From Escherichia coli (GTDB lineage: Bacteria > Pseudomonadota > Gammaproteobacteria > Enterobacterales > Enterobacteriaceae), in the NCBI RefSeq assembly GCF_003018115.1, contig NZ_CP027457.1: DNA of 64,000 bases. One strand, given 5' to 3'. Shown here piece after piece: positions 46,946 through 46,968 of this stretch (position 1 is the stretch's first letter; the number at the start of each line of letters is the position of its first letter). The notes below the pieces were generated by a model. The model saw only the letters and a program-made list of their open reading frames with translations, was not told the DNA's origin and did not search any database. The position numbers were made by a program, and so were the translations under genes.

Positions 46946-46968
46946 ATTAAGGATGTTGTAACTAAAGT
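46946..46968. other. Ter site (TerB-like Tus binding site) upstream of tus
   Basis: ATTAAGGATGTTGTAACTAAAGT contains the conserved Ter core GTTGTAACTA, 11 nt before the tus start. Confidence 0.65.

Follow-up and report, generated by a model that had tools for sequence, protein, structure and literature searches.

Does the Ter-like sequence just upstream of tus in this Escherichia coli contig function as TerB, and what do the bases in which it departs from the canonical site mean for that function? The stretch of DNA analyzed here, which is referred to throughout as the window, comprises 64,000 nucleotides of contig NZ_CP027457.1 (NCBI RefSeq assembly GCF_003018115.1). A first-pass annotation of the window had placed a Ter core just 5' of the tus start, regarded this placement as consistent with autoregulation of tus by Tus bound at TerB, and remarked that the flanking bases differ slightly from those of canonical TerB. 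Our analysis indicates that the site is very probably a functional TerB with a T2/G7 allele, which would act both as a back-up polar barrier to replication forks and as the operator through which Tus represses its own gene. The locus is a textbook TerB-tus module with a common allele, and such a module is already known. Its features are as follows.

45602-46903, + strand: rstB open reading frame (open reading frame list).
46946-46968, + strand: TerB, T2/G7 allele, a 23-bp Tus-binding replication terminator (21/23 identity with K-12 TerB).
46951, + strand: G(6) of the site; the C(6) opposite it on the - strand flips into the cytosine pocket of Tus and thereby forms the lock (sequence; role according to PMC8707476).
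46979-47908, + strand: tus, the gene for the 309-aa terminus site-binding protein (Tus), the site's cognate ligand (identity with the K-12 and PDB proteins; RefSeq annotation).

The + strand at 46946-46968, read directly from the 64-kb window, is ATTAAGGATGTTGTAACTAAAGT, and the letters quoted in the first-pass annotation match it exactly. The site is housed in the 75-bp spacer between rstB, which ends at 46903, and tus, and is separated by 10 bp from the tus ATG at 46979. No other place in the 64-kb window has three or fewer mismatches to K-12 TerB (this one has two), and 100 dinucleotide-preserving shuffles produced 0 matches to K-12 TerB. The Ter consensus GNRNGTTGTAACKA was likewise found as an exact match only once in the window, at 46951-46964. 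Because the shuffles yielded no match and the exact consensus match was the sole one, the site is taken to be real, and a chance match is ruled out on this sequence evidence. Positions of known importance were all intact in the window site, including A-T(5), with A at 46950, T-A(9), with T at 46954, and core positions 8-18 (ATGTTGTAACT).

Several other Ter look-alikes in the window were rejected. The candidate GAGGATTGTAACGA, on the - strand at 3363-3376, carries A in place of G at position 10, and matches with one mismatch are expected by chance (0.78). The candidate CGTACAGATGTTGTAACCATTGT, on the - strand at 22535-22557, carries A6 and C18, and the candidate TGCAGGAACGTTGTAACCTGATT, on the - strand at 63239-63261, has G5, C9, C18, and T19. 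The octamer GTTGTAAC occurs three times in 128 kb (two strands), which is approximately the chance number.

We aligned the loci of K-12 DH1, Nissle (EcN), strain 55989, one O157:H7 strain, and others. In this alignment, TerB of K-12 (DH1) at the equivalent position is AATAAGTATGTTGTAACTAAAGT. The window site differs from it by A>T at position 2 and by T>G at position 7, and is identical to it at positions 3-6 and 8-23; the 10-bp spacer to the ATG is identical as well. The impression that the flanks are slightly off canonical TerB was therefore correct, and A2T and T7G account for it. Alignment with K-12 TerB had also been proposed as a way to see whether the lock pair or the core is altered, and neither is: G-C(6), positions 8-18, A-T(5), and T-A(9) are unchanged. 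Ter sites vary strongly at base pairs 1-5, 7, and 19-23, and base pairs 6 and 8-18 make up the conserved core (Goodall et al., PMC8347550). With regard to GC(6), C6 is the locking base (PMC8707476), and loss of G6 is regarded as inactivating (PMC8347550). A-T(5) is altered in the non-locking sites TerF and TerH (PMC8707476), and substitution of T-A(9) lowers arrest (Coskun-Ari and Hill, as cited in PMC8707476). Across phylogroups, terB was reported to contain 1-2 SNPs per 23 bp (PMC10331603, Table 2). A2T and T7G both fall at published variable positions, and therefore at tolerated ones.

The same two bases are found in other Ter sites of K-12. TerC in MG1655 (1609157-1609179) is ATATAGGATGTTGTAACTAATAT, which bears T2 as well as G7, and terG also has G7, according to the supplement text of published work. 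Termination occurs most often at TerC, which is strong and lock-forming and is the innermost terminator within the same-orientation cluster as TerB (PMC8707476). The window site thus has two close relatives in K-12. With K-12 TerB it shares the location in the rstB-tus spacer, the 10-bp distance to the tus ATG, the orientation, 21 of 23 bases (including G6, A5, T9, and positions 8-23), and a downstream Tus that is identical at 308 of 309 residues, the difference being A2 and T7 in K-12 TerB where the window site has T2 and G7. With K-12 TerC it shares T2, G6, G7, and positions 8-20, and both block the same (clockwise) fork, whereas TerC differs at positions 3, 4, and 21-23, lies away from tus, and is not known to act as an operator. 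In other Enterobacterales with type I fork traps (Edwardsiella tarda Ter1 and Cedecea neteri; Toft et al. 2021), the tus-vicinal Ter sites also lie slightly 5' of the tus ATG and keep C(6), with 74-83% identity to TerB. Such type I tus-linked sites have a double role, in that they halt forks and mediate repression of tus. Type I traps have this tus-linked site as their innermost barrier, whereas in E. coli, which has a type II trap, TerB is second, behind TerC. The tus-Ter arrangement across genera has already been published (Toft 2021).

The gene next to the site encodes the ligand expected for TerB. The ATG at 46979 is the tus start in the RefSeq annotation of an E. coli record that is identical over this stretch. 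An in-frame GTG at 46967 was rejected as the start, as it is not the annotated one and the K-12/PDB protein starts with MARYDL at the ATG. The encoded Tus is identical to K-12 Tus at 308 of 309 residues, with I23A as the sole change, and matches PDB entries 1ECR/2I06, which represent the crystallised K-12 protein, with E = 8e-208. Given this 308/309 identity to the crystallised protein, the DNA-binding and cytosine-pocket residues of Tus are unchanged, as judged from the aligned proteins.

The orientation of the site was then considered in relation to replication. GC skew of the + strand was negative in 13 of 15 8-kb segments, and the cumulative skew fell steadily to -0.44 across the window. 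This negative skew indicates that the normal replication fork travels from right to left here. The left end of the window site (the position 1-6 side) is the non-permissive face; in the Mulcair 2006 model, as summarised in PMC8707476, the non-permissive face is the position-1 side. With the C(6) end on the left, a right-to-left fork would meet the permissive face. The geometry of the site fits that expected of TerB in the fork trap, in which it would block left-to-right forks, that is, those moving in the tus direction. [quoted passage not shown]

A second function of the site depends on its relation to the promoter of tus, for which the following element was identified.

46918-46946, + strand: putative sigma-70 promoter of tus, with -35 TGGTCA at 46918-46923, a 17-bp spacer, and an extended -10 TGcTATAAA at 46938-46946 (by eye).

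Position 1 of the Ter site is the final base of this putative -10, which places the predicted transcription start inside the Ter site. The promoter hexamers are kept in most of the sampled E. coli haplotypes. An automatic promoter/terminator scan of 46600-47200 called no sigma-70 promoter, because TATAAA does not have the final T that the scan requires. We infer the placement of the tus promoter from the by-eye reading together with secondary citations. The terB of K-12 is located within the tus promoter or overlaps it (PMC8347550), and Tus autoregulates its own expression via TerB in the tus promoter region (PMC8707476 and PMC8347550, both of which cite Roecklein et al. 1991/1992); PMC10331603 likewise supports such autoregulation in K-12. 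The proposal that the site upstream of tus is consistent with autoregulation is thus upheld, in that both the rstB-tus position and the sequence match those of K-12 TerB, whose autoregulatory role was reported in the first two of these publications.

Two further observations concern this promoter region. At 46900-46905, a C>T change compared with K-12 makes a perfect TTGACA over the rstB stop codon; it is not followed by a -10 at a suitable distance and is probably meaningless. In E. coli KTa005 (NZ_CP147084.1), ISEcp1 at 53-1500 (about 46919 in window coordinates) lies directly 5' of the tus promoter and replaces the end of rstB. The element adjoins the putative -35, with GGTCAA kept, and in this strain it could either drive tus or disturb its expression.

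On the basis of these features, a mechanism can be proposed for the window site. Tus, encoded directly 3', would bind the 23-bp site. A fork moving from left to right, which is the direction of tus transcription and corresponds to the 'clockwise' fork of K-12, would unwind the site from the position-1 side, and this unwinding would free C(6), which would dock in the cytosine pocket of Tus and leave the Tus-Ter complex locked. A fork coming from the right would pass the Tus-Ter complex. Within the fork trap, TerB would serve as a back-up for TerC. Because the site spans the last -10 base and the predicted transcription start, bound Tus may also occlude the tus promoter, and this occlusion would hold Tus at a low, self-limited level. 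We infer the binding, lock formation, fork arrest, and repression at the window site from experiments performed with K-12.

The distribution of TerB alleles in E. coli is relevant to the meaning of T2 and G7. The rstB-tus junction was found in 5423 of 5426 complete E. coli genomes. Queries of 62-63 bases spanning the site were used for the census, for which an identity of at least 99% equals an exact match over the site; this length was preferred to exact 30-mers, since the low-complexity masking and 28-base seed of BLAST might drop the AT-rich site unnoticed. The following counts of exact matches are lower bounds for the 5426 complete genomes.

K-12 allele, A2/T7: at least 2328 genomes.
Window allele, T2/G7, with identical flanks: at least about 1236 genomes.
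A2/G7 allele (EcN): at least 794 genomes.
1-bp insertion allele (ATAAAGTATG...): at least 262 genomes.
G1/T2/G7 allele: at least 47 genomes.

The T2/G7 allele is present in O157:H7 and in many other lineages. From these data, the window allele is, at the level of its sequence, a known and common natural variant and not a defect. About 570 further genomes matched the EcN query alone. An example, strain C31, combines an A2/G7 Ter site with G>A 2 bp 3' of the site, and the loss of seeds at these approximately 570 genomes is attributed to this G>A as it occurs in strain C31; the changed base, 2 bp downstream of TerB, lies within the short tus leader. In the approximately 262 genomes with the 1-bp insertion allele (e.g., DETEC-P649 and FFFEB2), TATAAA-ATAAAGTATG... 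is accompanied by a diverged promoter-spacer block, with GGCTGTCGAT replacing AGTCACCACC. One plasmid-labelled record also bears the rstB-TerB-tus junction and is probably a mislabelled or chimeric replicon.

Variation within the site was confined to a few positions. In 19 sampled genomes, only positions 1, 2, 3, and 7 of the Ter site varied, and positions 8-23 were invariant in the 18 sampled spacers (13 haplotypes). The 42 bp immediately 5' of the site contained 16 variable columns among 13 distinct spacer haplotypes (18 sampled spacers); a 17th column reported as variable upstream of the site reflects a terminal gap only. An apparent A/G variation at Ter position 6 in the MAFFT columns was rejected as an artefact of the 1-bp insertion allele, as G6 is present in all sequences when they are anchored on the core.

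Over 12 kb around tus, the sequences closest to the window were those of O169:H41 strains, with 99.9% identity, and O157:H7 showed 99.3%. The TerB allele and its immediate flanks are identical to those of O157:H7. Assignment of the window to O157:H7 was nevertheless rejected: a 201-bp query was 100% identical, but the 12 kb were only 99.3% identical and an O157 island is absent. In O157:H7 PV15-279, tqsA is split by a 14.9-kb phage-like island that contains integrase, primase, terminase, and capsid genes; the window is without this island, and its tqsA (36633-37667; 344 aa) is intact. The first part of the window, 1-15429, is a prophage remnant with insertion sequences that ends in an integrase beside rspB, and the region at 8-20 kb is low in GC (0.455) and its AT skew is unusually strong (+0.10). 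The following features belong to the prophage remnant.

1151-2464, - strand: HTH/rve transposase.
4539-6074, + strand: IS66-family transposase.
8356-8877, - strand: YdaT-like open reading frame.
11283-13790, + strand: 835-aa protein with a C-terminal Rv2179c-like exonuclease domain.
14134-15429, + strand: phage integrase abutting rspB.

Functional differences between TerB alleles were weighed as alternatives to the reading of the site as a plain TerB. It is conceivable, and in our view unlikely, that the TerB alleles of different lineages (A2/T7, A2/G7, T2/G7, G1/T2/G7, and the 1-bp insertion) set lineage-specific Tus levels or TerB off-rates. If this were true, the alleles would tune the leakiness of the back-up barrier of the fork trap, with the changed bases lying between the -10 and the tus transcription start. 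A related proposal, which we regard as distinctly improbable, is that the window site is a quantitatively altered TerB, in which A2T and T7G make Tus binding or the lock weaker or stronger, or shift promoter strength; strains with T2/G7 would then have a Tus set-point different from that of K-12 or a leakier back-up barrier. Both changes fall in the discriminator/start-site region, between the -10 and the predicted start, and the alleles segregate by lineage, each being frequent. Furthermore, Tus-GFP ChIP coverage in K-12 was 269x at TerC, which has T2 and G7, compared with 430x at TerB (PMC8707476), and since these two bases are common to TerC and the window site, a modest quantitative difference of the window allele is possible. 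However, TerG, which has G7, was bound approximately as well as TerB in the same experiment (410x versus 430x), and TerC is, as mentioned above, a strong lock-forming site and the main site of arrest (PMC8707476). TerC and TerG thus show that strong sites can carry T2 and G7. In addition, positions 2 and 7 belong to the variable, non-core part of the site (PMC8347550), and we found no sign of selection at these positions beyond neutral drift. Finally, the possibility that a chance sequence or a decayed pseudo-Ter lies here, without Tus-dependent function, like terF, terH, and terY, is effectively refuted and carries almost no weight: the two other GTTGTAAC octamers that occur in the window by chance indicate that a bare core alone is not diagnostic, but shuffles put the expected number of 21/23 matches to TerB at 0, the exact syntenic position is occupied in more than 5400 genomes, G6, A5, T9, and positions 8-23 are intact, unlike in pseudo-sites, and the core is free of variation, in contrast to the polymorphic spacer beside it.

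The reading of the site as a functional TerB with the T2/G7 allele has limited consequences. The genome would bear an intact TerB-tus module, with a back-up barrier to the clockwise fork and an autoregulatory operator for Tus, and the 'non-canonical' flanking bases represent a frequent natural allele. In the sampled E. coli genomes, the restriction of TerB variation to positions 1-3 and 7, beside a highly polymorphic upstream spacer, provides independent population-level support for the published definition of the Ter core.
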